Source: Eukaryota sp. GEM-RC1
Lineage: Eukaryota
Direction: 5' to 3'
DNA: 64,000 bases
Assembly: GCA_040285855.1 (NCBI GenBank)
Contig: JAUFOQ010000004.1
Span: forward strand, 310,001 to 374,000
Positions 381-42,459 of this stretch are shown one piece after another. How positions within the stretch are numbered: position 1 is the first letter of the stretch; each line of letters begins with the position of its first letter. Under the pieces are notes generated by a model. It had not been told where the DNA came from, did not search any database, and saw only the letters and a program-made list of their open reading frames with translations. Position numbers and translations under genes: made by a program.

Positions 381-3060
381 TCAATAAAGTTTATTGTCGT
401 CCACGAACATTTTTACAAATTTTAATTTTCTATTAGAAAAGAGTTGGGATACAACTCCCAATAATTCATCTGACGAACTCTTCATCTTAATTTTGGCAAC
501 CACTTCATCACCTCCACCAACTTCACACCTAATCAGTATCCGACTGTCATCAATCAAATCAAAATCCCATCCAGCTCTAATCACGTTTCCACTTTCCGAT
601 TTAAAACCCGGATCACATCCAAAGAGTCCACTCAGCGCATCAAGTCCAGCAGCAGCATTTGAATGGGGAAGTTTCAATGCTTCAGTTAGAGTTTCACGGC
701 ACTCGGGATCTGTCCAAGAGACTGAAGGATCAACAAAGGAAGGAATGGCAAAATCAGAGATTTCAAATGAAACAAAGTCTAATTCGGCTTCTTCTTCCAT
801 TATAGGCTCTTGGTACGACGATGGATCTTCTTCATCCGCATCAGCTAAACCGTAGTGTAGCATAGCTGAGAAACGAAGAGAGAGAACGTGTGGAAGGGAG
901 GAGGTGTTGGCGGTGAATAGAGAGTAAGTTGAAACATCTGATTCACATGGAATGACGTCAGCAGAGGTGCTGATGATTTGATGGACTGTGAAATCATCAG
1001 TTTCAGGGGTAAAGATCACTTTAGGGGAAACAAAAACCTGTCCGCTTAAAATATGTGTGATTTTTGGAAATAAACAAAATATTTGAAAAATCTTGTGAGC
1101 AAAACTTGTCCACCGTCACCGTATACTCCATTCCGTCCTCACTAATTAAGCACGAACCCACTGCAATCATTTCTGATTGAATCAAATCCGTCACATCAGC
1201 AGGCAACAAACTCTTGTCCAAAACAGGAGCTTTACCTACCTGTTTCCTGAGCACGGGTCTTCCTTTAGGAGAAGGTGATGACACAGCTGAGACAGAAGAC
1301 AGAGCTTCATTCAACAATTCTTGTAGTGAAGATGAAGGTGTTTCACCTTGATTAACGAGTTCTCTACGACTTTTAAGTAATAAAGTTAGTTTGGACAGAG
1401 AAACGTGTTGGCCATTGATTTCAATGTTGTCGTCATCAATAAGTCTATTCTCAACTAAAAAGTCTTTTCCTTTCTGTTGTTCAATGTTTTGAGTGATAAA
1501 TATGGCCAATTCTCTAACTTCGTCTTCAGAATCAACTAAAGCCATTTTAAAAACTTTCAAAATTTCAGCATACAACACTCCAGACTGATCCTCTATTTCG
1601 ATAAACAATCTTCCAAGTGATCTAAGGGCTGCACATCTAACAACAGTGTTCTCCAATAGAATCCTGTTGATTAAAGACCTAACATATTTAAGAGAAGTGT
1701 CTTTGTTGACGTCAGCAACATCACAAAGGAGTTCAATAGAATCAACAGCAATCGAGGTATACTCACAATCCTCAATCAACTCACTCAGAAAATCAGCCAC
1801 TGCCAAATCACATCGATGAGTTTCCGCCACACTCTTCACCACATCAAATAAACAAGATTTCAATTTCTGCGTGCCTTCTTCTCTCAGCAAAGATCCCACA
1901 AAAGACAATACAGGCTCTGCCAGGTCAGCATTGCGTAGTGGCATCTTCTTAATAGCCTCTAATACCTTAATTCTAAGGGAATCAGATCCAAGAGATCTAA
2001 GGAAACGTGATAGCTTACGAAGTTCAGTGGTTGCTTCAGCTGCAGTCAGATTTGATTGAAACTTGATTGATAGAGTGAGTGCAGTCAATGTTTTCCCTTC
2101 CAATCCTTCAAGTGAGAGAGAGGAAAATATAGTTCCGAGGTCGTATCCCTTACTACTTAATAGTTCAATGGTACGGACAGCAGCTAGCTTTTGAACAGGG
2201 AGAGACATGGAGGAAGTTAAGGAGTATTTGAGGGAGGATTGAACTTCCATGAGAATAGAAGGAGGGCAGTCAGAGAGAGAAACAAGTTCCCTGCAAGCAC
2301 CAATGGAGACAGAGTGACTTGTAGACTTGGTCTCGTCAGTAAGGAAGGAGAGGAAGGAAGGAGGACGTTGTGGTTGAGGCATACGGCGGAGGACAGAACC
2401 AATGAGAGCAGTTAGAAGGAGGGCAGGGATGGTAGCCAGCTTGGATCGGACTTCAACAATGGAAGATAGAGACTGAACATGGGACTTGAGATCGTGTTCA
2501 GTAGCTTTACTAATGAAAGAAATACACTGAAGTTGAACTGAGGCGTCTACTGACTTCTTTAACACTGAAAAGGACTCCTTTGTCCATCTAGAGACAGTAT
2601 CGAAGGAAAAGGGGAGCATCGATTGAGCACAGAGGAAGGCAGAGGCTTGAATCGAGGGGTGGGGATCGGATAGGGATTCTCGGGTTTGACGGGAGACATT
2701 GGGGGCAAGAGAAGGGTCCATGATGCGAGCTAGTACACGGAAAGCTGTTGATTTCAGTTCGGCAACTGGGGAATTGAGATCTTTAAGTAGACAAGAAGTG
2801 ATGATGAAGGCCGATTCTGTTCCAGGGGCCAGGAGAGAGATCAACAAAGATAATAGTCTGCGAACATGGTGATCGCGCATTGTAAAGAGCTTTGTTGCAG
2901 CGAAAAAGACTTCTTGTAGTTCGTTTTGAGTGAGTTGTTCCCCAGCGCAGATCGATTGGATCAATTTGGTAAGAAGACCTGTAACTTGCTTGGTTGAAGG
3001 GTTTGCCTCATGAAAGGCTCTACATTCTTGTAGTAATGATGTCTTATTAGGGAGTTGCAT
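381..3060 (-). CDS. COPG: Coatomer subunit gamma (split by a 1-nt homopolymer indel near 1061-1065)
   Basis: LQECRAFHE, EVFFAATKLF, FLSELIEDCEY, NRILLENTVVRCAAL, DEVRE and C-terminal appendage EYTVTVDK motifs. Removing one base in the run at 1061-1065 gives ...SKITHILSGQVFVSPKVIFTP, joining ORFs 1021-3060 and 381-1019. Confidence 0.93.
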
Positions 3061-3107
3061 TTACCTCCAACAACACAAGAGAGATGGGGAAAATTTTGGT
3101 TTTGTTT

Positions 3108-3168
3108 GTTTCATCTCCTTCACAAAAATGTCGGTTTCATCTCCTTCACAAAAATGTCGGTTTCATCT
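3108..3168 (+). repeat. 26-bp tandem repeat (2.3 copies) containing ATGTCGGTTTCA
   Basis: GTTTCATCTCCTTCACAAAAATGTCG at 3108-3133 and 3134-3159, then GTTTCATCT. Confidence 0.95.
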
Positions 3169-4023
3169 TTTCACCAGAAGCTCGGGCAACATTGCTTTCC
3201 ATAACTTGGATTCTTTACTTGGATCTGGAACTCAATGCTATACTGAAGTTCTTCTTGTTTAGAGGTATCAATCTGGCTATGGTTTCAGTTTATTCTCATC
3301 GACTTAGACAAAGTGTTGTATTCTTGATTATGCTATAGCTTAAGGAATCTGTATAAACCAAATTATTTAACACGTTTCTTCAACGTCGCCTGATGGACAG
3401 TCTTGAACACAGTTGCAGAGTTAATAATATACATGCTACATTGAATGTGATTATACCTAACAAAATCAGCAGTACAAACAACAGCACAGGTATTAGGATC
3501 GTTATACGAATGAACACATCATGATGTATCACAGAATTCCATATTCAGTGCTTTAAAGATCAACATATACAAGTTTATAGACACAAAACGCAAGACATAT
3601 TGGGGGTGAAACTTCATGTTAGCTTTGATGTGATGAATTAAGGCACAGAAGTTACACATGAAAGGAATTCTCTGGAAAAAGCAGATTGAGAGAGGAAGGG
3701 AAAGCAATGCTACGAGCAGACAACAAAGGGTAGGATTGTGAGGGCAAATGAAGAGATCTATCATATGAAACAATCTCTATCCTTAATAGGTACAAGAGCA
3801 ATGACAGAACGCAACTGAAGGTCATGACACGATGAGGATGTTAGAGCTAAAACACACCTTCAAGAAAGAAAGTCAATCAAAGCGTGTTAGGACTAGCAAG
3901 ACGCTGATACCTGAGAAAGCTGCATCAGTAGTAGTAAAAAGTGAAAAGAAAACTGTTGGCAAAATCAAAATCCCTTATGAAACGGAATCCTGTTGAGAGG
4001 AAAGTGATGAACAATCAATAACA

Positions 4024-7000
4024 ATGTCGACAGTGACTTATTTCCGTCTCATGACTCCATCAGGTTTGTTGATGTCTCACACAGTAAGAGGTTCCAATCC
4101 TCCTCGGCTGGATGTTTCGTATCCAGTTGAGACTGAAAGTTCCGTCCTTTCAGTTATGTGTTCAGGAGGTTCCGACCCTCCTCACACAGTAAGAGGTTCC
4201 AATCCTCCTCGAGTTTTTTCAGCTGAGACTGAAGGTTTCATTCCTTCAGAAGTGGATTTGGGTGGGGACTACGGCCCTAACCCAGGATTAACAACTCAGG
4301 GCAGTTGCAGAGAAGAGGCTTACAGCTTGATATCTGCAACTCCTGATGAGTTAATACCGCAGTGGTCCGTGTCTTGTGGTAACACTCGACAAAAGCAATC
4401 CACTTTTGAAAATTCTCTAAATGTTAATCAATATGCAAAATCAAATTCTCTTTCAGACAGGAAGCGTCTAGCTTCTGAATTACAATTTGCAGAATGCCCA
4501 TTTTCTAAAACGTCGGATTATATGTCTTCTTCAGATTCTGATGAAGAACACTCGAGATCTGAAATTCCAAAAACCTATTTTCAAAATGAATATAGGGGTG
4601 GAAACACTCTTGACAAAGTACGTTCTCGTGGTATCAACATTGACGAAAAAATAAAAGCAACACCTTTAGTGGATTTATCTTTAAGAGTCAACTCAACTGC
4701 AAAAATGCCTACCCTTTTAGTAGTTGATATTGAGACTCTCAATGATATTGATGAAGGAAGTTTTGTGGTTCCGATCGTCATGATTGGTTTCTCGTTTTGT
4801 TACTTTAAAAATGAAAAGATTTTTAATGTAGATAATTATTTGTTTTGTGTTGGAGATATTTCTGCATTAGAGTCTGAAACTGCTAATATTTTTTCATTTA
4901 ATTCTGAGTCCCTTTTGATTTCGAATTTTCTCAATTTTTTTAATTCAATTTCACCAGACTTTGTTTCCAGGATTTTATTCTGATTGCTTTGATCTTCCAT
5001 ATATTCTTAAAAGAGCTGCAATTTTAGAAATTGATACCACCTTCACTCATGAAGATATGACAGAAAATACGATTTCATTTCCTTTTCTTTCAGCCTCTTG
5101 GAACTCTACCATCTCTCATAAATTTGGTAATTCCACTTCCTTAGACTGCTGTTCTTTTGCCAGGAAAAATTTAACTTCAAAATTTGGCAACAGTCTAAAC
5201 AGTGTTTCTTTAAGTATTCTAGCTGAAGGAAAATCTAAACTCAGCAGATCCACTTCTACTCTGATGGAAACAGCTGAAGGAAGAGGTGAGTTAGCCAACT
5301 ATTGTCTGAAAGATGTGATTCTTACTTTAAAACTATTTTCAGTTTTTCAAAGACCAAATCCTTCTTTGCCTTTCTTTAAAACAAAAAAATTGGGTTTAAG
5401 CAAATTATTACATTTTGGCGAAGTTTCAGAAATTATTCGTCATTATGTAATAATACATGACCAATTGATGTCACATGGTTGTCAATTTCTGAAAGGGTTT
5501 ACTGTTAATCAGTATAAGCAATCCCAAGACAACCGTGAGCTGTATCAGTGGTTGTCACGATCCATGAGCCCTTTTACTCTTGAGGCAATGGACACAGAAA
5601 AAATTAAATTTACTAAAAAAAGTGTTCAGAAAAAGATGAATTCTCTAAAGTACTAACAGAAATTCTGCCTGTCATGGAAGAACTGCTTGCCATGGAAAAA
5701 TCAAAAAAGAAATGGTTGAAGACTCAAAGAAAGAGCACAGAGAGGCTGTTCTATTATCACAAATTGGTAGAAATCAAATTGATTATCCTAAACTTTTGAC
5801 CAATATTTTGTCTGTTTTAGAGGAGGAGACAGCAGAGTTAAATTCTGAAGTTATTTCTATGCAAGGTAGATTTAGTTGTATTCCTCCTACTGCCTCGTAC
5901 TCGAAGGAAAAAGTTAATGAGTATTTTCAAGAATACTATCGTTCTACAATGGCAGCCACTGATGACTCTGGAACTCCAGGAAATCTTTACTTGCCAGCTA
6001 TGGGTAGAATTTCGAGGTACAGTGTTGATGAATACATTAGTAATTTTGAAGTCAATATTAAAGAACACTGGGTGAAGTACGTGATCAAATTCATTTATTG
6101 CTACTTCCACCGATACAGTGTAACTAAAAAACTCAAACTCAAAATTAAAAAGAATATCGAAAAATTAAGAAACACAAAAAAAATTGAGATATTTCATTGT
6201 TTTCTCAAAGAGGTGACTAATGCAAAGTGTCACAGCAAGTACCCTAAATACGACCTCTTAAACGTATTTACTCTTCTATTTGAAAAATTCAAAGAACATT
6301 CGGAAATTATTCGTGAATTGCAATTTGAACTACTCCCCAAACTGTTGATGCTCTATGAAAACATACATCTATTTATTCCTGAAACACACGGATTAAAGAG
6401 TGCATCGTATCTGTGCAAGAAATATCCACAAAATTATCTATTTTATTCAATGTCTCTAATGCACGGGGTGGAATTGCTGACGTCAGAAGTCACTCAAATG
6501 TCATCTCACGACTTTGATGCAGCAGATGGAAAACCAGAAGATATGAAGTGCTTTAAACCTTCCATTTACAAAGTCTTCCCCCTGAAAACCTCTGAAACTC
6601 CTGGTCATATCTTTATTGACACAGGTGCTCTCTATCGGATTCTTATTCCCAATGACGATAGATTTCCTTCGAATAGTGAAGCAACACTACATGGAAATCT
6701 CGAAAAGTACCAACATCAGTACTGGAGTTGGATCTTTAGAACCTCAAAGAAAGCTTTCCGTCAACAGGGCTATTCATTTAACCATTCAATTCGCACCAAT
6801 GGAATTAGCGTTTCTCTAAGTTTAATAAGAAACGATTTAATTGGAAGAAAGCGTCTGCCCAGTAGAAATCTGGTAGACAACGACCTGTATATCACAGATG
6901 TACCAGTAGAATTACTGAAGGGTTCCTCTATCGTCTGTGGAGACCCCAAGAGATCAGTTGATGATGGGAGCAAGACGAAATTACGGTCCGCCAAAAAATC

Positions 7001-7934
7001 AAAATTCAAAACCCAAAGAACCCTCTTATACTAAGCTAGAATGGGAGGAGTGGCGAAATGACAATGGAAAGAGTGGTAACAGTGGCTACCATAAACGTCT
7101 GAACAATGAAAGACGACGTAAAGCCAAAGGTAGAGCCGCAAGTTACCGCACAACCAACTTGGAACCCCCAAAAGATCCTCCACCTGAGAAACCAGGAATA
7201 AAGAAGGAGCTCAAGAAGTTCCATTTTAAAAGATTAACTGCTCCTCAAAGAAAAAGAGAGACCCTTGGCAAAGATCAGCAGAAGTTCACCAGAGAGAGTA
7301 AGAAATCATGGATCATTGGAAAAACAACTAATGAAGAGTGGGAAAAACAACTAAGTAAACACTCTAGTAAAGTCCTTGATCATGATGATTTCTTGGCATA
7401 TTGTAAAGCTAAGAATGACTTCTCTCTGAACATGGGATCGTACTATCAATCAGACGATCTAAGGATAATGAAGCTCAAGAGGTATATGGCCAACGAACGT
7501 TTTGAATCAAGATGGATTGATGAGTTCAAAGAGAAGTTTGGAGGTCCAGAAAATACAGTGATAGTGATGGGAGATTGGAAGCAGACTATGTTCAAGAATC
7601 AAGCACCAACAAAGAATGTTGGTCACAGGGCAATGTTCAAAAACATCACTATCGGGTACTGCTGATCGATGAATATAGAACAAGCGCTCGATGCCATAAA
7701 TGTGTGCTTGAAAATCAACACGGTATGAATGAAAAGAAACATCGTGTTCAAAATCCCAGACCTTACAGAAGAGCAAAAACACCAACGGTTTTAAGACATG
7801 GATTACTCACTTGCAAAAAGTGTGGATGTCTTTGGAACCGTAACGTTAACGCTGTGTTAAACATGATTCATATTGTAGATGAACATGTTAGAGGAAATGG
7901 TAGACCAGAAGTTTTGAAAAGAACTTCTCCATAA
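4024..7934 (+). CDS. PolB-type 3'-5' exonuclease - Fanzor1 fusion (5 small frameshifts; start may be Met 4522)
   Basis: Exonuclease: ExoI LVVDIET (~4726), ExoII GFYSDCFDLPYILKRA (~4970), ExoIII LANYCLKD (~5300). Fanzor1: FKTKKLGLSKLL..HGCQFLK, NFEVNIKEHWVKY, PQNYL, VFPLKTS..HIFIDT, FNHSIRTNGISVS, RuvC-I IVCGDP, GDW, RuvC-II IDEYRTS, CHKC/CKKC zinc finger, RuvC-III WNRNVNA. Confidence 0.85.
4058..4381 (+). other. Cluster of about 10 hairpins (structured RNA or ssDNA) at the 5' side of the Fanzor gene
   Basis: Seven short stems with 7-nt loops at 4058-4074, 4088-4102, 4108-4126, 4133-4153, 4164-4182, 4193-4207, 4229-4249; a cUACGg hairpin at ~4259-4284; a long stem 4287-4355; a stem 4355-4381. 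Confidence 0.6.
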
Positions 7935-7997
7935 TTCTCTCTCCCTCCAGTGATCTAACCGGGTCACTATTATTAGACATTTTTAAGCTATTAGCTG
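7880..7997 (+). ncRNA. Candidate Fanzor omegaRNA 3' region (extent approximate)
   Basis: Hairpin AGTGATCT-AACC-GGGTCACT (7949-7968, two G-U pairs) just after the Fanzor stop codon, where Fanzor/TnpB omegaRNAs are known to lie. Confidence 0.45.
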
Positions 7998-8565
7998 ATG
8001 TCGGTTTCAATCAATGCATATGGAGTTCTTTTCTGTGAGCTTGTCCGCACTGTTCAAAGTTCAGTGAGCCGTGCAGATGATTTAATGGATCGTCTTGAAG
8101 CCATTGGGTTTCCTATAGGCAGTAAACTTATCGAATCTGTCGTTCACAAACATCTTAAAGATAAACGTCCTCTTCTCCACAGTCAAGCACTACAAGCAGT
8201 TCTTAAAGCTTGGAAGGTCTACTTCGGCCACTCAATCGTTCTCATGCATTCTATGATTAAAGGCGAACGCAAACCTTTTGAGTGTATGCACTCTTCATCT
8301 TTCTCTCATTTCAGTTGTCATTAAGGATCCCCTACCCCTTGTCTCTACTTATTACTCAACTCCTCCTGAACTTCGTGACTCATCCGGCTCAGACCTTCTC
8401 CGAGTCACTTCTTTCATGGGAGGGATCATCAAGGGAATGCTTACAACTCTAGGATTTCCCTGCACAATTAGAACTGGTCATAAGCCCACCACTGAGCACC
8501 CTCAGCAAACATTATACCAAGTTACCTTTGAAAATAGTGTAAAGGATCGAGAAGAAAGCTTGTAG
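7998..8565 (+). CDS. TRAPPC5: TRAPP complex subunit 5 (Trs31), one 31-nt intron 8284-8314
   Basis: VSINAYGVLFCELV, RLEAIGFPIG, WKVYFG, FMGGIIKGML..LGFPC. Splicing GTATGC...TTTCAG gives PFEFVIKDPLPLVSTYYSTP. Confidence 0.9.
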
Positions 8566-8566
8566 T

Positions 8567-10207
8567 TTATTGATTGTACAATACTCGGAACAACGTGCTT
8601 TCTTTTACTTTGTCTGTTATCCAGGAGGGTTTTTTACCTGATATTGGTTCTTGTTGATTAATTTCAACCATTAAATGTTGCCAAATTGTCGTGTTATGAC
8701 CGTAGTCCACTTTGAGAAGACTTTTTAATTTCTGTAAATAATGGCTGGTATTCTGATTACTTTTTAAATTATTAATTATTACCGTCACTAGAGCCAACAC
8801 CATTTCCCAGTAATCTGTACTATGAACGTCTTCAACAATATAATTTTCCACCATTTCAATTATCTGCTTTTCATCAAAATCAAAAGTTATTCTAGATAAA
8901 ACAGTTGAATAGTTTGTAAAAGTCCTTAAAAGATTAGGAGATAAATGAGTCTTCTGTGACCAGCTCAGAAGTTTTATTGCAAGAGTCATACAAGTCGACG
9001 ACTCAGCTGTATTTGACTTAAATGAAACAAGAAGTAGAGACCATAGTTTTGAAAAGAACATGCACGAGAATGACGGGAAAAGCGTATAGAGATTGAATTC
9101 CTCACATAAAGAATAGATTTGAGATAGGTGATTCCAATTGTCTTCTGTTAAATGAGTCATACTTAGAAGTGACTTCCAAAATTTTAAAATATAAAAACTT
9201 TTAACTTCGAAAAGTACCTCTGAGTTAAATACACTGGCATGAGGTTTACTTAGCCACGGTACATTAGGCTCAATGTCAGTAGAAACAAAGGCAAGGTCAT
9301 GGTTGCAATGAAATTTAAATAGAATATTGTAAATGTCGAGAATTTGAAGAAATTTGAAAAATGTCAGATCAGTTATGATATTATTAAATTTGATTAAAAA
9401 TCCGGAATTCTTTGTCTTATATTCAGATACTTTTCCAATTATCGATTTAAATGAATGAAATTCCTGATCACACAACAGGTTTCCTCTAGTTAACTTTAAA
9501 TCAATTGACCAAATATAACAATGTAGATACTGAGCAAAATCCATATTAACTGTCACAAAGGGAGACATTGACAACCACTGAGACGAGTCAGCAAACAGTT
9601 CAATTGAAGACAACAAGAACTTCTGACCAACCACAAGGATAGAAGGAGGTATTGAAGAAGAAGAATCAAATCGGGAGAGGAAAAGTGCCCATAGTTTCGT
9701 TTTAAGAGCATCAAAAGCAGTGATGTGTATGGGAAGGAAGAGTTTGTAAACCTTGGATGTTGTAATGTCAGCGACCAAATCCAAAGTTAACAACAACACG
9801 TGTAGGTGGACATTTGGGTCTGTCAGGGGATCCATTAAGATCTTAGTAAGAAAGTCAAGAGGAAGAGGAGGATATGATGATGTTGGATTAGAGAAGAAAC
9901 GGGATTTGTAAGCTTTGGAAAGCAGATTGACAACGACATAGGTATGCACTGAATGATTGTGTTCTTGTAGAAGGAGAAATGCATATTCAAGGTCTTCTAT
10001 GGCTTGAGAAACAGGTCCATAAAAGAGAAAGATGTGACCTAATCTAACTCTGGTTGTTAGTTCAAATTCTGAAGGAAGTTTGTGTAAAGAAAGCGCAGCA
10101 TGTAAACATTTGGCTGCATCAGGAAGATTAAATTGTTCTAAGTAGTGTTCAGCTTTATTCCACAAATAGTGTAGAGGTTCAGAGACTGATACATGTAGCT
10201 GGTCCAT
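8567..10207 (-). CDS. MAU2/Scc4-like cohesin loader subunit (divergent helical protein)
   Basis: 546-aa ORF. N-terminal AAKCLHAAL...ELTTRVRLGHIFL...AIEDLEYA resembles the MAU2/Scc4 N-terminus. Confidence 0.55.
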   Translation of the reverse strand: MDQLHVSVSEPLHYLWNKAEHYLEQFNLPDAAKCLHAALSLHKLPSEFELTTRVRLGHIFLFYGPVSQAIEDLEYAFLLLQEHNHSVHTYVVVNLLSKAYKSRFFSNPTSSYPPLPLDFLTKILMDPLTDPNVHLHVLLLTLDLVADITTSKVYKLFLPIHITAFDALKTKLWALFLSRFDSSSSIPPSILVVGQKFLLSSIELFADSSQWLSMSPFVTVNMDFAQYLHCYIWSIDLKLTRGNLLCDQEFHSFKSIIGKVSEYKTKNSGFLIKFNNIITDLTFFKFLQILDIYNILFKFHCNHDLAFVSTDIEPNVPWLSKPHASVFNSEVLFEVKSFYILKFWKSLLSMTHLTEDNWNHLSQIYSLCEEFNLYTLFPSFSCMFFSKLWSLLLVSFKSNTAESSTCMTLAIKLLSWSQKTHLSPNLLRTFTNYSTVLSRITFDFDEKQIIEMVENYIVEDVHSTDYWEMVLALVTVIINNLKSNQNTSHYLQKLKSLLKVDYGHNTTIWQHLMVEINQQEPISGKKPSWITDKVKESTLFRVLYNQ

Positions 10208-11608: not shown

Positions 11609-14208
11609 ATGGTGAAAAGACGACAAGACATTAACTCTAGGCCTCAAGTTGAGGAAGTCAGCTCATCGGAATATGCTTCTGATAGCTCTTCATCATCATC
11701 TTCGTCATCCGGTGTAAGCCCTGATCCGTCAGGCAACTGAAGTCCCCCATCCAATACGGAAGGCGGAAGTCCTTCTCTCCCATCTTCGGAAGGCAGAGAT
11801 AGGACTGGTGTAAGACCCCCATCCTTTACGGAAGGCGGCAACCCGGAAGACCTAAGACCCCCATCCAATACGGAAGGCGGCAGTCAAGGAGGTTCTACTT
11901 CCTCAGCCTTTGACATTGAGTCTTTGCTGAACAAGTTTAGACCTCCTAAAGGTTACCAGCAACGTTACGCTGCCACTTTCTCAGCCGTAACTAACCAAGA
12001 AATGGTTTCCTCCACTCTTCAAGTATCCTCACAAGGTACTCCTCTTAGTACCTCTTTTCAAAATAGTGTAGTTTTAGATAATAAAGATAATGTATCGGAC
12101 AGTATTCCAGCTTCTCCTGTGAGATCAGCTGAAGTAGCAAAGGCAATTCGTCTTCTAGAAGAATCCTTAGCTAAGAGTAAGACCATGACTGCAGAAGTTA
12201 GCAACAAACTTCTTGCTGAACAGGAACATAACCTTCAACGAATGCAAATGTCTGCTGAAGACCGTGCTCGTGAAGTGCAAAGACAAGTCGGGAGTGTTGG
12301 TATGGGTTTCCACCCTGATGCCATCCCTGATAGTCGAATTCCTTGGGTAAGTCCACCGGTTTCAATCTCTGACTCTGATATGTGGCACCTAGCAAAGTTC
12401 CGTCCATGGCATCCAGTACTCAGGAACCGTATGCCAGAAGGTTGGCATTATCTTCTGCGCAACGTTCCACCTGGTACCTCACCTGAAGTTATTGAACAAT
12501 TTCTAGGAAGTTGGTACAACAGGGAGTCTGAAGACACTTACAGGTACCCAGCTGTCAGTTCTTGGGATCCTCGTCATGGGATCATCATTGAACCTCTTGA
12601 GCCAAAGTATGACGCTGATGGTATGTCTGTGGTGTACGAGTACACTGCGTGGTATCAGCACTGTTTGAATAACCAGTCGCAGATTTATCACAACGTGGCC
12701 ATAAGTACTGAGTGGTTGTCCCCCAATCACCATTACAGTCACTTACCGGTTTCGACGTTCCAAAACGGAAACTCGACTACTCGTGTTCCGAATGTTGAGT
12801 CCACTCGAATCATACCTTTTCAAGGTATTGGTGGCTCTCAGAGAGTTCTTCCACTTGCAGCTGGTGCTCTAAGTGAGAATGCAACTGACACTCCAAAACA
12901 AGACGAGCTAAGCCGAACTCAACGACTTACTCCCTTTGCTCCAGGTGAAATCAAACATCCTGAAGTTGTTGACAGGTTCCCAATTGATTCGTTAGGTTTC
13001 AGATCTCGTAATGATCAATCGACCGCTAAATTCGACCAAGAGAAAGCTTGTCCCCGTTATGTTGCCCGTATGGAACATGAAAATGTTTATCGCAAACCAG
13101 AATTCTTCGCTGATGGTCACAACAATACCGAATCGTCGGTAATCTCTAAAGAAGAACTTCTACGCCCTCGAAAGGAACGCACCGAAAGACTGATTGCCGA
13201 AGAGAAACGTCAGCGAGAAAGAGAAGCTCAATCGGTTGTGATTGATGATTTACCTCTCCCAATCGAAAATCATTTAAATCAAAGTTCTTCGTCTGAAGAT
13301 GAACTCCCTGATAATGTTCTCCATGATTCCGCCATCCTTGCATCTGGTGTTACTCCCAAAGCAAAAAAACCAAAAAAGAAAGATTCGAAACATCGCCCCT
13401 TTTTGAAGAACGACACCCGTGCTGAGGTGGTCAAATTCCTACATGATTTCAGCCACTGGGCTGTTCATACAAGGAAACAACCAGCTTACAGAGGCTTCGA
13501 CATGTGGCTTGGCAAACCCAAGAACAGGTTTGATTTCGCCAGAACAGCCCTTTGTGAAGTGGACCCAGAAGGAGTAAGTGGTTTCATTGACCAAACATCC
13601 CTGTCCACTTGGAAAATGATGGATGCTATTGGTAACGACACTGATACTGTTTCCCTAGAACAATCCATCTGGAGACTGCTAGTCGACAAAAGCCAATTCT
13701 CTTCAACAACCGCAGCATCGAGTGCTCTGAAATCCATCCGTCTAGGAAATGCTAAAGACCCCCTTGAATGCATCGAGAACTATCTCTGCAACATAATCCG
13801 GTCTCTAAAGTGCTCGATGGCAATTCCCACCATCTCGAGCGATCCAACTGATAGGGATCACCTCCATGCGTCAATAGTCGCCGACATCATCTTGGCCACT
13901 CTCAACCCTAAACAGGACATTGTTGCTCTGAATGAGTTACATGTCCGTTGGGATCAAAAACTGAAGTCGGATGATAGCCTCCTTCCCCGATTTTTCAACG
14001 AAGTTAAAGGAATTTGGATCACCTACATGAGATCTACTGCTGTAGCTGCTCCTCCTGCTAACCGTCGTGATATGAGACATGGCCCACCTAGAAATCGTGG
14101 TCCCCATTCTAGAAGGAATGACCCCCAAATGCTAAGACCTCAGTTAAGTGTTACAACTGTGGCAAACCAGGTCATTTATCCTCTGAGTGCCGTCGTAATA
14201 AGAACAAT
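11609..14208 (+). pseudogene. gag: gag-like ORF with C-terminal CCHC zinc knuckle
   Basis: ATG 11609 is in frame with ORF 11924-14212 across one TGA (11738-11740); PPS(N/F)TEGG repeats at ~11740-11880. After a shift near 14125 it reads KCYNCGKPGHLSSEC, in frame with ORF 14209. Confidence 0.7.
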
Positions 14209-16134
14209 ATGACCTCCAGAGACCAAAGTGGAAAGCCCCTAAAACGTAGGTCCGGTGATAGCTTTAGAGGTCAATCAGACCAATCTAATCGTAATTTTAA
14301 CAATAAATCAAATAACTATATTTTTCAAATATCAGTTGACAACACAAAACACGCTACACCAGTAAAGTACATGAACCCATTGGCTGCTTTGAACACACAT
14401 TCAAGCAAGGGTAGAAGTACGTCATCTGTTGAAACAATTCGCAGTCTCAACCAGAACCTAGGGATCGAGTCAAAGGATAACGGTTCCTTATGTATTCGAT
14501 TGTTGATTAACAATGAGCCAGTGATAGGTGAGTTTGACTTTGCAGCTTCGTGCTCAGTCATTTCTCAAGATTTAGTGCGTCACTGTGAGATGACAACTAC
14601 TGACAGTTGTATTGAATACATTTCAGCGAACAACATTCGTGCAACATCCTTAGGTAGTGCACTAGGTGTTTTGACGTTCAACGTTGGTAGTCTAGCTAAC
14701 CAGATTCATATTAAGCATACTCTCCCAGTAGTACCTGGTACCAAAATACTCCTGATAGGCAGAGACTTACAAGAAGAACTGGGATTACTAACGGATGATG
14801 GTTTAGTCATTAGATTAGACAAGGAGCATCGCACTATTCTCAGTGCAGAGAGTGTATTCGATGGTAGAATGAAATCACCATGTGAATCAATCAATAGTGT
14901 TCAATCAAATTCCTCAACAATAAATTTAAATATTGATTTGTACGGCAACACTCAAACTGACATCAGTTTATTTGAAGAGATCATTGACAACTCTGGTTTC
15001 ACGATAGAATTGGATGACCCTAATAGAAGAAAGGAGCTTCTGAGCCTACTCAGTAAATACAAACAAGTGTTCTCTGAGGAGATACATCCAGATGGTATCG
15101 ATTGTCCACCGATGACCATCCCTTTTTATGATGAAACTGTCACTGTATTTCGTCCTCCTAGAAGGCTTAACCCTGAAAAACAGCGTATAGCCGAAGAAAT
15201 TTTTAATGAACTTATACGACAAGGATGGGCTGTACCATCGACTGGTAAGTTCAGTAGTCCCATTGTGCTTGTTGTCTACAACGACCACAAAAAGAAGCCT
15301 CGTTTGACTGGTGACTTCCAGTGGACCAGACGGGATTAACGCTAATAGCAGACCGGTGAAACCAAACTTACCACGGATCTGTGATGTTCTAGAGTTCCTT
15401 TCGAAAGCAAATTTCATTGGAACACTTGACCTTCCTAAAGCATTCTGGCAGCTAAAGGTAGCTGAGGAAGATGTCGAGAAGACCAGTGTATCTATACCTG
15501 GAATGTCAATTAGCTTCAAACGAGCATGTTTTGGTTTGAAAAACGTACCAGCAATTTTCCAAAACATCATGATGGAAATATTCGATGTGGAAGGTGTATT
15601 CATTTATAAAGACGATATAATTGTAGTAGGTGACACTTTCGAACAGTTTATTTCAAGAATAAATCTAGTACTGGAACGAGCAGAACGTTTTAGAGTACGG
15701 ATTGGATTACGGAAGTGTAGGTTCACCACTTCAAAACATCCTAATAGGATTCTGGGCAGCAATTTTTGCAACAAAACCCGTAGCAGTAAACCCGTCTACC
15801 AGCTGATCACGATCTCCACAGAGCAATTGCTTCAGGGGATTCTGAAGAACACATCGTTGTAAGGATCCTTGACAGGTTCAATACTCCTGATGGTGAACAC
15901 TGTACGGTCCTCTGGTTTGGTGGTGACACTTCATCAGTTCCTACCAAGGACATCAAGAACACCAAAGCCTACAGTGATTTTTGTAAATTAGAAAATGTAG
16001 ATTTATTTCATAGTAGTAACAAGAAGCCTAAGCTCAAACGCACCTCGAGTAATAAGAGTAATCCTAAGTCACCCTCTAACGTAAAGACACCTGTGGCTAA
16101 GAGAACAAGGAGCTCGAAAGAGGAGAAGAGGTAG
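14209..16134 (+). pseudogene. pol: pol remnant: aspartic protease, reverse transcriptase, chromodomain-like tail
   Basis: PR-like GEFDFAASCSVIS..ILLIGRD; RT FSSPIVLV, LDLPKAFWQL, FGLKNVPAIFQ, YKDDIIV. After ~15790 another frame reads EEHIVVRILDRFNTPDGEHCTVLWFGGDTSSVP to TAG at 16132-16134. Confidence 0.85.
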
Positions 16135-28121: not shown

Positions 28122-28172
28122 TTAGAGTATCGAAACCACAGACACCCAGTGAGCTAAGCCCACTGCGCTGTG
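28122..28172 (-). other. 3' terminal hairpin of the second Fanzor locus, followed by CTAA|T
   Basis: Minus strand CACAG-cg-CAGTGGGC-TTA-GCTCACTG-ggtgt-CTGTG, then 11 nt, then CTAA followed by T. Confidence 0.5.
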
Positions 28173-28188
28173 TACCGTTAAAAATACA

Positions 28189-29462
28189 CTAAAGTTCTTT
28201 ACGAGAGACCTTCGTCTGCTGGACTGACATTACGCTTCTTCTTTTAGGCGAACTCATTTCTTTTGGTGGATTCTTGCATGATCTTTTGTTATGACCTTCT
28301 TGGCCACAATTTCCACATGTTTTCTTCTTTCCTGTTGAAGTTTTGTTCTTTCCGGTCACAGTCTTCTTCTTTCCTGTTGAAGTTTTGTTCTTTCCTGTTG
28401 AAGTTTTTCTTCTTTCTGGTCGCAGTCTTCTTCTTGTCTCTCGCCAAAGTATCCTTACCACTCTCGAGATCTGTTGTTTGAGTTTTAGATCTCTCGAGAG
28501 CGGATGGTCTACCTTGACCATTGATCGTTGCTTTAATGATGGAATAGATATTAATGGCAGAATTTAGGTCTCTATTCCAATAAGTACCACACTCAGTATC
28601 TGAGCACCTTACCAGTCCCCAGGGTGTGGATTTAGCTTCTTCTTCCCATGACTTCTGCTTCACCTCCCACTCTGCTTCCAAAATCCCGTTGGTTTAGAGG
28701 ATCTTGTTTGTTTTTGAGCAAAATTTCTCTTCTTAACTTTCTCTTCTTCCTTCTTAGCTGTCTCTTACCTTTGGGACCAAGAACCTTTAGTTCTGAAACA
28801 TTTTCACATTCTACGAAAGTTGATTTTTCCTTAGCACATTTGGAACAACACTTGCTTGTTCTGTATTCATCAACAAGAAATATTTGGTATCCATATCTTC
28901 TTAACATTTTACGGATTTCTACTCCTCTAACAGTAGAGGTTTTGCCCTTTCTTGTTTTACCTTTTGAGCTCCAATCCCCATAGCCAATGACAACGTCTTC
29001 TGGAGGTCCATATGTTAAATTGAAGCGTTCCAGCATGTTTTTTTCCGACCGTTGGTTATTTGAATAAATTTGGAATTTCCTCTTTCTAAACCAGTCATCT
29101 TCGTAGAAAGAATTCAAATATACGTTATATCGTTCAGCTTCTTTAATATATGTTCCAAATGTGTCACTGAAACACGACTTTCTTTCCCCGTTTGATACAG
29201 CATTGGAGAATTGGTTAACGACATCTCTGCCTGTTACAAGTATCTCGTTAGAATTGGGAACCAAAAAATCTTGAAGTTGAGTTTCATCTGGCAATTCTGA
29301 AGGAAAATCTGGAAGTTCATCAGTAAGAGTTTCCTCTTGTGAATCAACAGAAAAATCTCTGCGTTGCCTTTCAGTGCCAGTTTCATCTGGTGATTCGATA
29401 GAAAATTCTTTCAGTTTTCTATTTTCAGATTTACGATATTTTTTAGGGTAATAAAGAAATTT
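28189..29462 (-). pseudogene. Fanzor1 C-terminal (RuvC) half with Lys-rich repeats and CCHC knuckle tail
   Basis: FRKRKFQIYSNNQRSE, VVIGYGDWS, LVDEYRTSKCCSKC, VRCSDTEC..WNRDLNSAINI, then KKKTSTG repeats and CGNCGQEGHNKRSC. Two frameshifts; no recognisable Fanzor N-terminal half. Confidence 0.85.
28321..28430 (-). repeat. 21-bp coding tandem repeat (K[K/N]KT[S/V/A]T[G/R])
   Basis: About 5 copies of TT(C/G)TTCTTTCCTGTTGAAGT-like units. Confidence 0.85.
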
Positions 29463-30186: not shown

Positions 30187-31896
30187 GGGCGTTTTGCAAA
30201 AATACCATTCAACACGTGTGCATTTTCCAAATCTACCATACCCATTGCATTTCTACCATTCTTGCTTCTTTAGTTGTTTGTCAATAAATCGTTTTTATAT
30301 ATAACAAGTATCTTCAGTGATCTAGAAAACTACCAGTACGCTTCTTCTTTGGAGCACCTACTCCTCTTCTTACAAGAGGTGGACTTAAAGTCAATGCGAT
30401 AGTTTCCCATTGACTCTTGTCCCTAGGTGGCGACCCAACAGTCATAAATCTTTGACTGTGTTCTGGTTTCGAAGCAACTATCCACAAATTCCAAAGGTTT
30501 GACATTCTCTGACATCAATGCTTTGGCAGCATGGGAACAAGGAATGGCCTCAGTTTGCCAGACACCACAATCACAGTGTTTCTGCTCCAATTCCACAAGA
30601 TAAGTTCTTCCTCTTCCAATGACTTCAATCGTGGTCCCATTCTTCCGTGAATCCAAAATCCTAGCTTCTTGAATTCTGTTCTCCATAACGTTCATGACTG
30701 ACAAAACTAATGGCGTTTTGGCTCTCTGGGCTTGACCTGCATATTTTTCTTGCCGCTCTCTTATCTTTTCTCGTATACACTCCAACAGCTCAATTCAATT
30801 AAGGGATACCCTCAGTTTTCTTTGATAACTGAGTTGGAAGCACTCAGAGATGTTTGAGGTAAGATGACCGTAGCGACATTTTGGAAAATAGAGTTCATGA
30901 ATAAGAGCAAGGTGAAGGTCATCCTTACAGCTATAAGTAGCATTGACTTCTATTGGAAGAGGTAAGTGGTCTTCCCAGTTTATTAGCATGTATGGTAGAT
31001 TTGGAAGGGGTATGGTAGGGGCGTTTTGCAAAAATACCATTCAACACGTGTGCATTTTCCAAATCTACCATACCCATTGCATTTCTACCATTCTTGCTTC
31101 TTTAGTTGTTTGTCAATAAATCGTTTTTATATATAACAAGTATCTTCAGTGATCTAGAAAACTACCAGTACGCTTCTTCTTTGGAGCACCTACTCCTCTT
31201 CTTACAAGAGGTGGACTTAAAGTCAATGCGATAGTTTCCCATTGACTCTTGTCCCTAGGTGGCGACCCAACAGTCATAAATCTTTGACTGTGTTCTGGTT
31301 TCGAAGCAACTATCCACAAATTCCAAAGGTTTGACATTCTCTGACATCAATGCTTTGGCAGCATGGGAACAAGGAATGGCCTCAGTTTGCCAGACACCAC
31401 AATCACAGTGTTTCTGCTCCAATTCCACAAGATAAGTTCTTCCTCTTCCAATGACTTCAATCGTGGTCCCATTCTTCCGTGAATCCAAAATCCTAGCTTC
31501 TTGAATTCTGTTCTCCATAACGTTCATGACTGACAAAACTAATGGCGTTTTGGCTCTCTGGGCTTGACCTGCATATTTTTCTTGCCGCTCTCTTATCTTT
31601 TCTCGTATACACTCCAACAGCTCAATTCAATTAAGGGATACCCTCAGTTTTCTTTGATAACTGAGTTGAAGCACTCAGAGATGTTTGAGGTAAGATGACC
31701 GTAGCGACATTTTGGAAAATAGAGTTCATGAATAAGAGCAAGGTGAAGGTCATCCTTACAGCTATAAGTAGCATTGACTTCTATTGGAAGAGGTAAGTGG
31801 TCTTCCCAGTTTATTAGCATGTATGGTAGATTTGGAAGGGGTATGGTAGAGATGATAAGGTGTTTTTATTTTCACTGGTATAAATGCAATTATCCC
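30187..31896 (-). mobile_element. Non-autonomous MULE/MuDR derivative, tandem dimer
   Basis: Perfect 9-bp TSD AAAATCTTA (30178-30186, 31897-31905); GGG...CCC imperfect TIRs; units 30187-31018 and 31019-31896; encodes TSNISECFN and SWIM CDCGVWQTEAIPCSHA. Confidence 0.9.
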
Positions 31897-33842: not shown

Positions 33843-35654
33843 TAAAAGATTAATTTAAAATGGACAAACGGAATACCAACACAACTGCAACATTGACCCA
33901 TCGAAGTCATGTTGGAAGATAAATGATTTTTTCCAATATATTTGCTCTAAATAATAGATCAACACATTTTCGTACATCTTCATCCGTTGGAGAATCAGGC
34001 ATTGATTTTAGGAACTGTTGAGGGTTCTCACTCATTCTTTTAATCGTCAAAAGTGGTTCAATTAGAGAACATTGAAGAATCTCTGGTTCATCGTATTTTA
34101 ATCTCTGAAATTTACTTGGTAAGAAATCAGTTTCCACAAGACGAAGACAGAAGCCTGCAGATTTGCGTCCAGCTCGACCAGCACGTTGATAAAGAGATGC
34201 AATTGAACAATGGTGAGGTGATAAAATATCGTCAGAGTCAGTACGTTTTCCTACACCACAATCAATTACAATTTTAACTCCTTCTATCGTAATTGATGAC
34301 TCTGCAAGGTTGGTGCTTGCAACAATTTTGAACTGACGCTTCTCTGGTGCTTCAATAGCCAAATATTGTTGATCAATGTCCAGTGTTGAGTACAATGGAT
34401 ATATTTCCGTGACTTTTGCATGAAGTGGTATTTGATTGTAAGTACCCTGTGTATGCCCTCCATACGATTTTTTTTCAATTCAGCAAATTCCCTTTGTTGG
34501 TGAAGGAGCTCAATTTGGTTTATCAGTTCATTGATTTCCGGAACACCAGGTAAAAAAAACTAGAATAGTAAAGCCTTCCAGTATAGAATTGTCTGCAAAC
34601 ATGGATTCTGCGACAGATTGGAAACATACACAGATTTGAGCTAATGACTTGAAACAGAAACTACTGAAGCCAATTTGTAGGTCTCTGGAAAATTTAGTAT
34701 AATAATCCTTCACGGAAGAATACAACGATGTGAAGACGTTGAAAAGATTGTTTGCAAAATTTCGACTTACATTGGGGAAAAGGTCCTTGCTAATAAGTTG
34801 AATAAGGTCTTGGTGACTTTTTGTGTTAAAGTCTATAACATCAAGAATTAACAATGGTTGTGCTCTGCTGCTGGATGTAATGATGGTACACTCATTTTCA
34901 AAATGTAAATTATCATCACCGACAAAGTACTTGAACAGAAGATTTGGAGAAGGCATGGTTGCTGAACAGATGAAAATGTGTAGATGTGATTTTGATTTTT
35001 CATACATAGATTTCAATTGAGTTAGTAGAATATCTATATCAGCCTTTCGTTCGTGAGCTTCATCTACCATAATATTCTTCAATCTTGACGAATAATTGAA
35101 ATTAACCAGACTGTTATAAGTATATGCAGCAGTGGAAACTTCAATGAACCTGGTCTGATGTTCGGCGATATCAGTATTGTATCCACCTGTACGAAATCCT
35201 GCAATCAGATATCCAAATTTTGCCGGTTCGGGATTTTCAGCTGTCATTGTATTCAAATAATTTGAAAGGCTCTCTGAGGCCATTATGCGTGGTTGACAGA
35301 TGATAACCTGTTCAAGTTTAACTAAAACAATGGCGATACCAGTTAACAGTGACTTTCCAGACCCTGTTGCGCCAGAAATAATAAGTGGTAACAATTTAGC
35401 ATCATTATTAAGAGAGCTTAGTAACAGCTGGATCAGTTTAAAAAACGTACATTGTCCTTGACAAACAAAACCAATTCCGTATTTCATGGAATTGTATATA
35501 ACACACAAACATGCTTTGACAACATCAAATCCATCAACACAAAGATTAAACCGTTCTGACACCCAACAATTATGAGAAAACAGTAATTCTATAATGGTAA
35601 GGATAAATTCATTATCACAAAATTCGTTCCCTAAACTAATGCAAGATTCGTGTC

Positions 35655-35912
35655 GAATTGACGGGATTTTTGGGGATTCAATTATTTCTGAAGCATCACA
35701 AGAAGGAGAAATTTGTTGCATGGGTTCTTCTTCAGTGATTGATGGGATATTTGGGGATTGACATTCACTGATTTCTGAGGCATCACAAGAAGGAGAAATT
35801 TGTTGCATGGGTTCTTCTTCTTCTTCAGTGGTTGACGGGATTTTTGGGGATTGACATTCACTGATTTCTGAGGCATCACCAGAAGGAGAAATTTGTTGCA
35901 TGGGTTCTTCTC
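35655..35912 (-). repeat. Coding tandem repeat EEPMQQISPS(C/G)DASEI(SECQ)SP(K/N)IPS x3
   Basis: Three ~90-bp near-identical units visible in both DNA and protein. Confidence 0.9.
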
Positions 35913-37186
35913 TTGGTTGGAACCATTTGGTATACGCTTCATTAAGTTCAAAATACTTGGCATAATTGTCAGAGTCATTAGCCAATGATACAATTGATTT
36001 CAATGCATACAAACAGTTTGATAGCAAAAAAATATCAGTATCTGACTGCGGTAGGAAGTGATGATGTGCACTAAAAGCAATTTCAAACTTGAAAAGATTC
36101 AAAGACTTATAATGCTCATTAAAGAATTTGAGACGGACTTGAGATGTACACGTTTTGAGTGCTTCATAGAAGTAAAAATATCTTGAAATCAGACGATGTG
36201 TCCAAGAGTGTAAGTCTTGCGAGGTAGCAATAAAACAATCCCAATTTTTCAGTAATATCTGTAAATCAGCATCAGAAGATTCAGTATCAGAACAAGAACA
36301 CATGTCTTTACGTGTGCATATAATGTCGTCAATGTCAAAAACCAGATTTTGATAAGTAATACTAACTTTGGGGGTTGTAGTACTGTTTTCTGCTATGTCA
36401 AGGATTGCTTCACTGTTGTCGTGAAAATTCTGTAAAGAAAATTCATTGTTCTCCTTGTCATAAAATTGTACATGACCGTTTCTAGCCAATTGTAGATGAA
36501 GCATTGTGAGAAGCATATCAATCATTGCTTGCTTGTTAATCAAAACATTGTGATTCAACACATCGTAAAAAAAATTTAAATCTTTTGCCATTGGATATTG
36601 AAAAGGACAATCATGAAGTTGATGACCGGGTAAGAGACAACGTGGACACGGCGCAATAAATCTACAGAAACTCTTATCAGAAGTATAATCATCTACATTA
36701 AACAAGGGGTTGATCGGGAATGTTCCGTTCGGTTTATACATTTCATCAAAACATTTTTCCACGATTGTAAAGTCGGATCGTTTGGTAAATCATAATTTAT
36801 ATCACATGAATCATAGATACGAGCTGATAGCCAGTTTTCAATGTGAAAATTGGAGACATTGCCTTGGTGGATTTCATAATCTTGAAGAATTTCTTTTAAG
36901 AAAGATCGATTAACAATCTCAGGTAACTGTTGAATTGACTGAGGGGCTTCATATGATAGTTCTGTCACCGTTTCGTTAAAGTGTTCGCAACAGTGGCAAA
37001 TTTTGAAGTTTTTGCTGCGGCCTGATGATGCAATAGGATGAACATTACAGCTGTGTGAAAACCGACCACAGCGATTATGACTTCCAGATGGTTTATAAGT
37101 AGGTCTGGACTTTTTTTTGGTGGCGTAGTTGAACTGGCTGAGGTACTTGATTCAATGCTAGATGTGCGTCTTTTGTTTGGATATGG

Positions 37187-37213
37187 TGGTCCAGGATTTA
37201 GTTCGACATCTCC
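37187..37213 (-). other. 2A-like ribosome skipping (StopGo) motif GDVELNPG|P
   Basis: KQDLTIHGDVELNPGP matches the D(V/I)ExNPGP consensus exactly. Confidence 0.8.
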
Positions 37214-37250
37214 GTGTATTGTCAAGTCTTGTTTCCATAGACTTGTAGAC

Positions 37251-37486
37251 AACCAAATCTCTGTAACCGTCAGCACGAAAAGACTTTTGGGTGTTGAGAA
37301 GTGGAGGGGGGAGGGAATTGACATCAGGAGGAGGAGGTAACCAAATCTCTGTAACCGTCAGCACGAAAAGACTTTGGGTGTTGAGAAGTGGAGGGGGGAG
37401 GGAATTGACATCAGGAGGAGGAGGTAACCAAATCTCTGTAACCGTCAGCACGAAAAGACTTTGGGTGTTGAGAAGTGGAGGGGGGA
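37251..37486 (-). repeat. 87-bp tandem repeat (2.7 copies) encoding PPPPDVNSLPPPLLNTQSLFVLTVTEIWL
   Basis: Units start at 37251, 37339 and 37426. The first has one extra T, which causes the frameshift between ORFs 37158-37604 and 36965-37324. Confidence 0.9.
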
Positions 37487-42276: not shown

Positions 42277-42459
42277 AAGTACAAGTAGCTGTCGAATAAA
42301 GCATCATACAATGTGGGCATTTTTGATAGACGAGATGTGCGTGGACATTTCTGATATTTTCCCATTGAAATACAGTCCCTAGATAAAGTCATGGTTTGAA
42401 GTGAAAGAGAAATTTGATGAAGACCAAGTTTCCCTGCGCTCAAACAATCCATCAACTCA

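Follow-up and report, generated by a model that had tools for sequence, protein, structure and literature searches.

The locus

This article describes a gene in which a polymerase-type exonuclease domain and a Fanzor1, a relative of TnpB and Cas12, are joined in a single reading frame. The gene was found in a 64,000-nucleotide (nt) stretch of DNA from Eukaryota sp. GEM-RC1 (GenBank assembly GCA_040285855.1, contig JAUFOQ010000004.1, positions 310,001 to 374,000), which we refer to as the window. It lies on the plus strand, flanked by genes for coatomer gamma and a TRAPP subunit, and its features, all on that strand, are an N-terminal extension, the exonuclease, the junction, the two regions of the Fanzor1 and a candidate guide-RNA scaffold.

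The exonuclease half and the junction

The gene opens with a low-complexity extension (4024..4680), for which no Pfam family was matched. The first ATG is at 4024 and the next strong one at 4522, a 31-nt direct repeat lies within it (at 4076/4181), and upstream its frame is open again at 3805-3993, followed by a single stop at 3994. A low-complexity N-terminus is also present in three of the relatives introduced below (P0033, P0155, and P0157).

The extension is followed by a Pol-delta-like, family-B DEDDy 3'-5' exonuclease domain (4690..5345). ExoI (VDIE, 4723-4734; D4726 and E4732) is in the frame of the open reading frame (ORF) 3997-4983, while ExoII (GFYSDCFD, with its D at 4991) and ExoIII (YCLKD, 5300-5314; Y5300 and D5312) belong to ORF 4919-5656. 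The domain therefore has the DxE, D, and YxxxD of a DEDDy enzyme in the proper order, together with similarity to PF03104. This family matches the first ORF above the cut-off (E 1.7e-5, profile positions 64-162) and the second below it (E 0.005), at the adjoining profile positions 152-242. When ORF 4919-5653 was searched against the PDB, all four matches were to Pol delta (E 1e-6 to 4e-4); the ExoI half alone gave no polymerase match there. The motifs are also in register with those of viral PolB proteins. The palm, fingers, and thumb of a polymerase are absent, in that PF00136 matched none of the window pieces or relatives scanned. A single-sequence structure model of the domain was unusable (mean predicted local distance difference test score 32).

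At the junction (5315..5400), the motif LKLF..FQR leads into the first Fanzor strand (KTKKLGL, 5378-5398). ExoII, ExoIII, and this strand share one stop-free frame, and no 2A-like motif was found between the two domains. A preliminary description, made from the sequence of the window alone, had reported just such an unbroken frame, as well as four DEDDy acidic residues, a resemblance to Pol delta, and the lack of a palm domain, and it was right on each count. It had also placed ExoI a single 1-nt indel upstream; that indel exists, near 4968, but it is one of five frame breaks in the gene.

The Fanzor1 half

To test whether a Fanzor1 indeed begins here, we assembled 211 viral loci carrying a Fanzor1 motif; the 109 distinct proteins of at least 550 amino acids (aa) among them served as the basis of a profile. 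Profile positions 10-71 correspond to residues 149-210 of ORF 4919-5656 (E 0.0024 among 1,356 window ORFs, the next unrelated one being at E 0.46), positions 98-385 fall on ORF 5649-7034 (E 1.6e-39), positions 396-539 on 6919-7665, and positions 537-627 on 7524-7934, with all pieces in order. The exonuclease therefore runs unbroken into the very first Fanzor1 strand. The preliminary description had made its reading depend on an alignment of this part with Fanzor1 N-termini; residues 5363-5548 do form a Fanzor1 N-terminus.

The WED/REC region (5363..6935) matches GtFz1 (E 4.5e-5) in addition to the viral profile, and is collinear with known Fanzor1 proteins, as is the corresponding part of the relative P0157 when compared with SpuFz1 (E 4e-31). 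The RuvC and zinc-finger region (6936..7934), supported by PF07282 (E 1.3e-7) and the viral profile, contains RuvC-I D6942, a rearranged RuvC-II glutamate (E7671, in DEYRTS), the CxxC pairs of the zinc finger at 7692 and 7812, and RuvC-III N7842 (WNRNV), before the stop codon at 7932-7934. The C-terminal motif that defines Fanzor1, D-X(125-275)-[TS][TS]-XX-C4 zinc finger-X(5-50)-RD (PMC3627910), can be followed from D6942 through RTS and CHKC/CKKC to R7839, with the last residue being N, not D. The rearranged RuvC-II, an alternative glutamate located ~45 residues downstream (PMC10530073), is found here as IDEYRTS and in the relatives as NEHNTS or DERYTS.

Relatives sharing the fusion

Other copies of the gene exist in the same organism. 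A protein search among sequences of 134-429 aa returned two hits from 258 candidates, the window's own ORF and P0002 (Eukaryota sp. GEM-RC1), which is ~90% identical to the window and lacks the break at 4968. A single frame of P0002 sets in shortly past ExoI and takes in ExoII, ExoIII, and the start of the Fanzor (PF03104, E 2.5e-12). Four further GEM-RC1 fragments (P0003, P0004, P0153, and P0154) are ~84-94% identical to the Fanzor part and distinct from the window, and the gene is multi-copy at the protein level.

A search with the Fanzor middle gave 324 hits at E ≤0.001, the best 150 of the 324 being listed. The fusion also occurs in Eukaryota sp. TZLM3-RCL; organisms labelled GEM-RC1 and TZLM3-RCL are free-living anaerobic metamonads (PMC11316075). 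The search led to P0033 from this second species (1,281 aa), in which a low-complexity N-terminus precedes a DEDDy domain (E 2.3e-13) and a Fanzor1, both complete. The cluster of P0033 also includes P0155 (781 aa, ending in REC), P0156 (2,027 aa), and P0157 (1,096 aa), and a second subfamily, ~55% identical to the first, includes P0165 (1,192 aa). P0156 carries a DEAH helicase N-terminal to the exonuclease-Fanzor core, whereas P0165 has a 2A-like peptide, a Ulp1-like protease, ExoII-III, and Fanzor1; these varied N-terminal modules could be real polyproteins or could have been joined in gene prediction. Three of the five second-species proteins (P0033, P0156, and P0157) are full length, with ExoI-III and RuvC.

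In all seven junction-spanning proteins, the window's included, 22 residues separate the ExoIII Asp from the first Fanzor strand, without gaps, and LKLF..FQR is invariant. The window and the second species are 25-34% identical in the exonuclease and 28-30% in the Fanzor. PF03104 matches P0002, P0033, P0155, P0156, P0157, and P0165 with E values of 1e-8 to 5e-14. We have hardly any doubt that the exonuclease-Fanzor1 architecture is genuine and conserved; it recurs in two species and three subfamilies. A one-off chimera, which the preliminary description had named as something that would refute its reading, is countered by the shared junction in other copies, among them full-length second-species proteins of 1,096-2,027 aa. 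Two trees, a quick one and a second that used 47 of 90 eligible rows, placed the window copy with other protist members (support 87 and 93); since both carry a long-branch warning, the case for a single origin rests mainly on the shared junction.

Outside this lineage, we found no exonuclease domain in the Fanzor1 relatives screened. A profile of the fused exonuclease matched 7 of 176 stored proteins, all of this lineage (four of the seven had been used in building it), and the next best had an E value of 0.037. In the 211 viral Fanzor loci, the exonuclease profile found 2 of 6,601 ORFs at E <0.005, both outside the Fanzor frame and probably neighbouring viral polymerases. A Pfam scan of 46 hits gave PF03104 in two of them. 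Viral scans with window pieces returned two unrelated phage loci or nothing, the ESM Atlas gave weak PolB-exonuclease leads only and nothing for the Fanzor middle, and one metagenome match (L003) was dropped as a chance hit in non-coding DNA. A word-based search among proteins of 430-2,000 aa found nothing for ORF 4919-5653 or the RuvC piece; these blanks are false negatives, because P0033 exists.

The window holds a second Fanzor1, of the ordinary type, on the minus strand (28289-29462). It is truncated, running from the bridge helix to the C-terminus with one frame break, and has a RuvC-III Asp, several hairpins at ~28130-28190, and no trace of an exonuclease upstream. On the same strand, 4.4 kb from it, are pieces of a DEAH helicase (33907-37357) that are ~30% identical to the helicase of P0156, the second Fanzor being downstream of them. 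The motif DVELNPGP, which we take to be a 2A-like ribosome-skipping motif, lies upstream of the helicase pieces. Motif, helicase pieces, and second Fanzor are possibly a decayed large modular element.

Active sites and origin of the exonuclease

The window, P0033, P0155, P0156, and P0157 all retain the four acidic residues together with the ExoIII Tyr, while the other motifs of Pol delta have diverged; selection for catalysis is the likely reason. At a background identity of 25-34%, simple arithmetic (not a formal test) puts the chance of keeping all four acids at ~1% or less, and for this reason the fused domain has probably remained enzymatic.

The third RuvC residue is an Asp in 190 of 191 viral Fanzor frames and in 71 of 81 stored proteins matched. 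The other ten stored proteins have an Asn; nine are of this lineage and the tenth is P0058. The Asn appears to be fixed across the exonuclease-Fanzor clade. The match between P0157 and SpuFz1 extends from the first strand as far as RuvC-III, with the Asn of P0157 aligned to the catalytic Asp of SpuFz1. We dropped the idea that this Asn marks a dead nuclease, since GtFz1 has an Asn at the same place and cuts DNA (PMC11423790); the fused nuclease therefore need not be dead. The D606N mutant of SpuFz1 even cuts better than the wild type (PMC11423790).

Among solved structures the exonuclease is closest in sequence to Pol delta (best match 42 bits, vs ≤16 for herpesvirus, RB69, and archaeal polymerases). 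Compared with 120 viral PolB fragments, P0002 scored 34.5 bits against the best of them and 42 against yeast, and P0157 scored 22.0 and 20.1 bits, respectively. An origin of the domain from a giant-virus PolB is possible on these scores.

State of the window copy and its ends

Read from ATG 4024 with an X at each break, the window copy gives a product of 1,302 aa, at the upper end of the ~1140-1300 aa estimated previously. The five frame breaks are at ~4968, ~5620, ~5700, ~6948, and ~7642, and there is no stop codon in ~1,300 codons. The first (4964..4972, 1 nt) separates ExoI from ExoII and is absent from P0002. The second and third are both in A-runs; P0004 reads through the latter, and comparison with it moved this break from a location of ~5775 considered earlier. 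Four of the five are in runs of 4-7 identical bases, a coincidence with a chance of 14-30% per window in windows picked post hoc. Breaks 1 and 3, and less clearly break 4, are absent from other copies, which in turn are broken at places of their own.

Similar damage is present in host genes. Of eight host-gene junctions inspected by eye, four contained plain frame breaks (one in coatomer gamma, three in an 11-kb gene), which points to residual indel errors in the assembly. The coatomer gamma gene (381-3060, minus strand) and the 11-kb, surface-protein-like gene (53006-63998, minus strand) both show frame breaks unlike introns. The assemblies of the named relatives are nanopore-based and short-read corrected (PMC11316075). 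Neutral decay would predict one to five stops in the window copy, depending on the substitution-to-indel ratio, and there are none (probability 0.30-0.008). The breaks are more likely due to poor polishing of a repeat than to early decay.

Past the zinc finger, stacked hairpins mark a weak candidate for the guide-RNA scaffold and right end (7860..7980), ending in an 8-base pair (bp) stem at 7949-7968 that is followed by ATTATTAG. The candidate folds with a z score of -2.9 (1 of 200 shuffles, best of three overlapping windows); the adjacent fold window at 7840 comes only 5th among the 34 of the element, and the hairpins are hence not outstanding. Rfam gave two sub-threshold hits and nothing near threshold for the scaffold. 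The TCTTCAAGGGTGTA-type right end, found in many viral copies, is absent from the window copy. Many of the viral Fanzor1 loci (L004-L214; not counted) have a conserved right end like TTTTAAATCTTCAAGGGTGTA past the stop codon. We found no terminal repeats or target duplication in 2900-8700, and a 12-nt match between 3128/3154 and 7998 was treated as chance. A 26-nt tandem repeat (3103-3168) is located just upstream of the coatomer gene, in the interval that must hold the left end.

Genomic surroundings

The window is eukaryotic, with genes for coatomer gamma, a TRAPP subunit, ACBP, and RPB8, short introns, and plentiful remains of mobile elements. The TRAPP subunit gene starts at 7998, its ATG 64 nt past the Fanzor stop. 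A Gypsy-like retroelement (11741-15862, plus strand) has a zinc knuckle, a protease, a reverse transcriptase, and several frame breaks. Three identical SWIM-finger ORFs, presumably MuDR-like fragments, are present at 30423-30794 and 31255-31626 (minus strand) and at 43076-43447 (plus strand), the last of them inside a Pif1-like helicase gene (42421-44374, plus strand).

Proposed function

Our preferred reading, which we would give a probability of roughly 45%, is that the fusion may act as a homing enzyme, guided by RNA, that cuts and then trims and thereby helps the mobile element carrying it to be copied. A guide RNA from the right end would direct a double-strand cut at an element-free site. 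On the non-target strand the cut would fall 14-17 nt beyond the target-adjacent motif, within the right flank. Of the two 3' ends, the one on the motif side would then carry 14-17 nt of right-flank sequence; this tail would find no match in a sister or homologue bearing the element, where the element itself follows the same point. The exonuclease, being tethered, would shorten the displaced, single-stranded 3' end back towards the junction, which would block simple re-ligation and leave a primer from which the host polymerase could copy the element in. Proofreading domains prefer single-stranded DNA, the state of the cut non-target strand once displaced in the R-loop. A bolder version, a single-chain homing machine that trims exactly to the junction and relies on host recombination for its spread, hardly needing a transposase if at all, strikes us as rather doubtful. 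In this version, some members may also have a DEAH helicase in the chain.

Several published observations suit this scheme. SpuFz1 cuts the non-target strand after nt 16-17 and GtFz1 after nt 14-17 (PMC10432273), and TnpB cuts donor sites that have become empty, which sets off recombination that restores the element and so retains the transposon (bioRxiv 2023.03.14.532601). Homologous recombination needs 3' tails made by 5'-3' resection (PMC7534431). End resection, one of the roles first suggested for the exonuclease, was thus a mistaken assignment, as a 3'-5' enzyme has the wrong polarity; trimming of a non-matching 3' tail fits instead, since such a tail has to be taken off by either a flap nuclease or a 3'-5' exonuclease. 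When a mismatch lay 8 nt from the end of a break in yeast, proofreading by Pol delta eliminated it in 83% and 35% of cases (on the two sides), but at 22 nt from the end in 7-8% only (PMC7534431). T4 I-TevI cuts 23-25 nt from its insertion site, and the efficiency of intron homing is influenced by the 3'-5' exonuclease of the family-B polymerase of the phage (PMC2988022).

A number of points weigh against the homing proposal and should be kept in mind. Some concern the proteins: the relatives are gene predictions, known as protein sequence; P0165 has no recognisable ExoI in its predicted sequence; P0022, of the same clade, has ~170 N-terminal residues without an exonuclease match; and seven other clade members are predicted to begin downstream of the junction or are short fragments. 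Others concern the window copy, which may be dead, its breaks exceeding the host-gene rate (5 vs 0.6 expected; P 4e-4 by a rough calculation); no transposase was found in 2900-8700, and activity, expression, guide RNA, target motif, and element end are all putative. Then there is the question of need. Ordinary Fanzors and TnpBs persist without such a domain, hosts have other routes of tail removal, and the motif-distal end could prime copying without trimming. The reach of Pol delta is reported to extend up to 40 nt, with Rad1-Rad10 taking long tails (PMC10868807), and engineered exonuclease fusions impaired a Fanzor2 (PMC12923547).

The same two activities might instead cut and destroy. Degradation of 3' ends would prevent clean re-joining, resulting in deletions or loss of the target, be it an element-free allele, competing mobile DNA, or a virus, with no primer left for copying. 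The 3'-5' exonuclease TREX2 fused to Cas9 does raise mutation frequency and deletion size (PMC13370227). Mobile DNA is abundant in the window, and P0156 has its DEAH helicase ahead of the exonuclease. A layout of helicase plus nuclease is that of Cas3. However, just one of five predictions has the helicase, and that one may be two genes run together; neither a guide array nor a foreign target was seen; and an element that mutates its own target site stops re-cutting and gains no copy. We hold this explanation to be unlikely, if not unreasonable.

Still less probable, in our view, is that the exonuclease serves excision or integration of the element (by a rolling-circle or other transposase acting in trans), apart from the Fanzor cut and as part of a polyprotein. 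DNA transposons can carry accessory DEDDh nucleases and helicases (PMC3627910), and the variable N-terminal modules (a DEAH helicase, or a Ulp1-like protease with a 2A-like peptide) and the 3' hairpin after the gene agree with it. The linker between exonuclease and Fanzor is, however, short and of fixed length in all subfamilies, and has no 2A-like motif, which suggests a coupled unit.

Some DEDDy enzymes, such as RNase D and Rrp6, act on RNA. The fused domain might accordingly trim the 3' end of the guide RNA from a longer read-through transcript, the protein thus maturing its own guide, though we consider this a long shot. Proofreading domains of DNA polymerases, which provide the best matches, act on DNA. 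Fanzor guides made from the right end plus flank do need shortening, and only ~15 bp of guide is protected by the protein (PMC11423790), but guide maturation by other Fanzors expressed in yeast proceeds with no domain of this kind (PMC10432273). Finally, a chance chimera or artefact, a Fanzor landing on a polymerase pseudogene or a mis-joining of contigs, could account for five frame breaks in the window copy, but is refuted for the architecture by the same junction in another copy and in two second-species subfamilies at ~30% identity, and we give it next to no weight.

Significance and comparison with known systems

A lineage-fixed exonuclease offers a handle on what Fanzors do for their elements in eukaryotes, as comparing dead and wild-type versions would separate "cut, trim and copy" from "cut and scar." The full-length predicted members P0033 and P0157 make this testable now. 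The fusion would be a natural RNA-guided nuclease of the TnpB/Cas12 family with its own end-processing enzyme. Engineers have tried this design, with gains for Cas9 and losses for a Fanzor2; a natural pairing could therefore show how to couple the two activities, and may yield a tool with distinctive repair outcomes.

The exonuclease-bearing Fanzor1 variant appears to be new, and the preliminary description likewise knew of no account of it. No natural Fanzor or TnpB with a polymerase-type exonuclease was found in the literature searched, which covered listings and the opening lines of abstracts (subscription papers and patents were outside its scope). The word "exonuclease" is absent from the passages of PMC3627910, PMC10530073, PMC10432273, and PMC11423790, and from those of bioRxiv 2023.08.09.552727 and part of bioRxiv 2026.06.03.729735, as is "Fanzor" from those of PMC11316075. 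Supplement searches for the domain names and the ExoII/III motifs gave nothing in the portions covered, which took in long table entries in part and had fig. S1B of Jiang outside their scope.

Known Fanzor1 proteins (SpuFz1 8gkh, GtFz1 9cer, and PpFz1 9cf0; PMC3627910, PMC10432273, and PMC11423790) share the collinear WED/REC/RuvC/zinc-finger layout, the rearranged RuvC-II glutamate and, in GtFz1, the Asn as third residue, and they too can be multi-copy in a eukaryote. The fusion is about twice as long as the solved examples, the N-terminal DEDDy exonuclease and low-complexity extension being extra. With the proofreading domain of Pol delta (PF03104; 3iay and 6s1m) it shares ExoI/II/III and the SLNSVS..IL.E.K / LA.YCLKD region, but it is strongly diverged and lacks the N-terminal, palm, fingers, and thumb domains. 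TnpB cut-and-copy (bioRxiv 2023.03.14.532601) and T4 I-TevI homing (PMC2988022) follow the same logic that we propose, an off-centre cut after which recombination copies the element; in those systems the exonuclease is a separate host or phage protein, whereas here it belongs to the same chain as the nuclease and we infer homing. Parallels in design are TREX2-SpCas9 (PMC13370227) and the TREX1, TREX2, and T5 fusions to MmeFz2 (PMC12923547), which likewise tether an exonuclease to an RNA-guided nuclease. Those fusions are artificial, and the Fanzor2 versions lost activity; the one described here occurs in nature, draws on a polymerase-type domain, and has persisted in more than one species.

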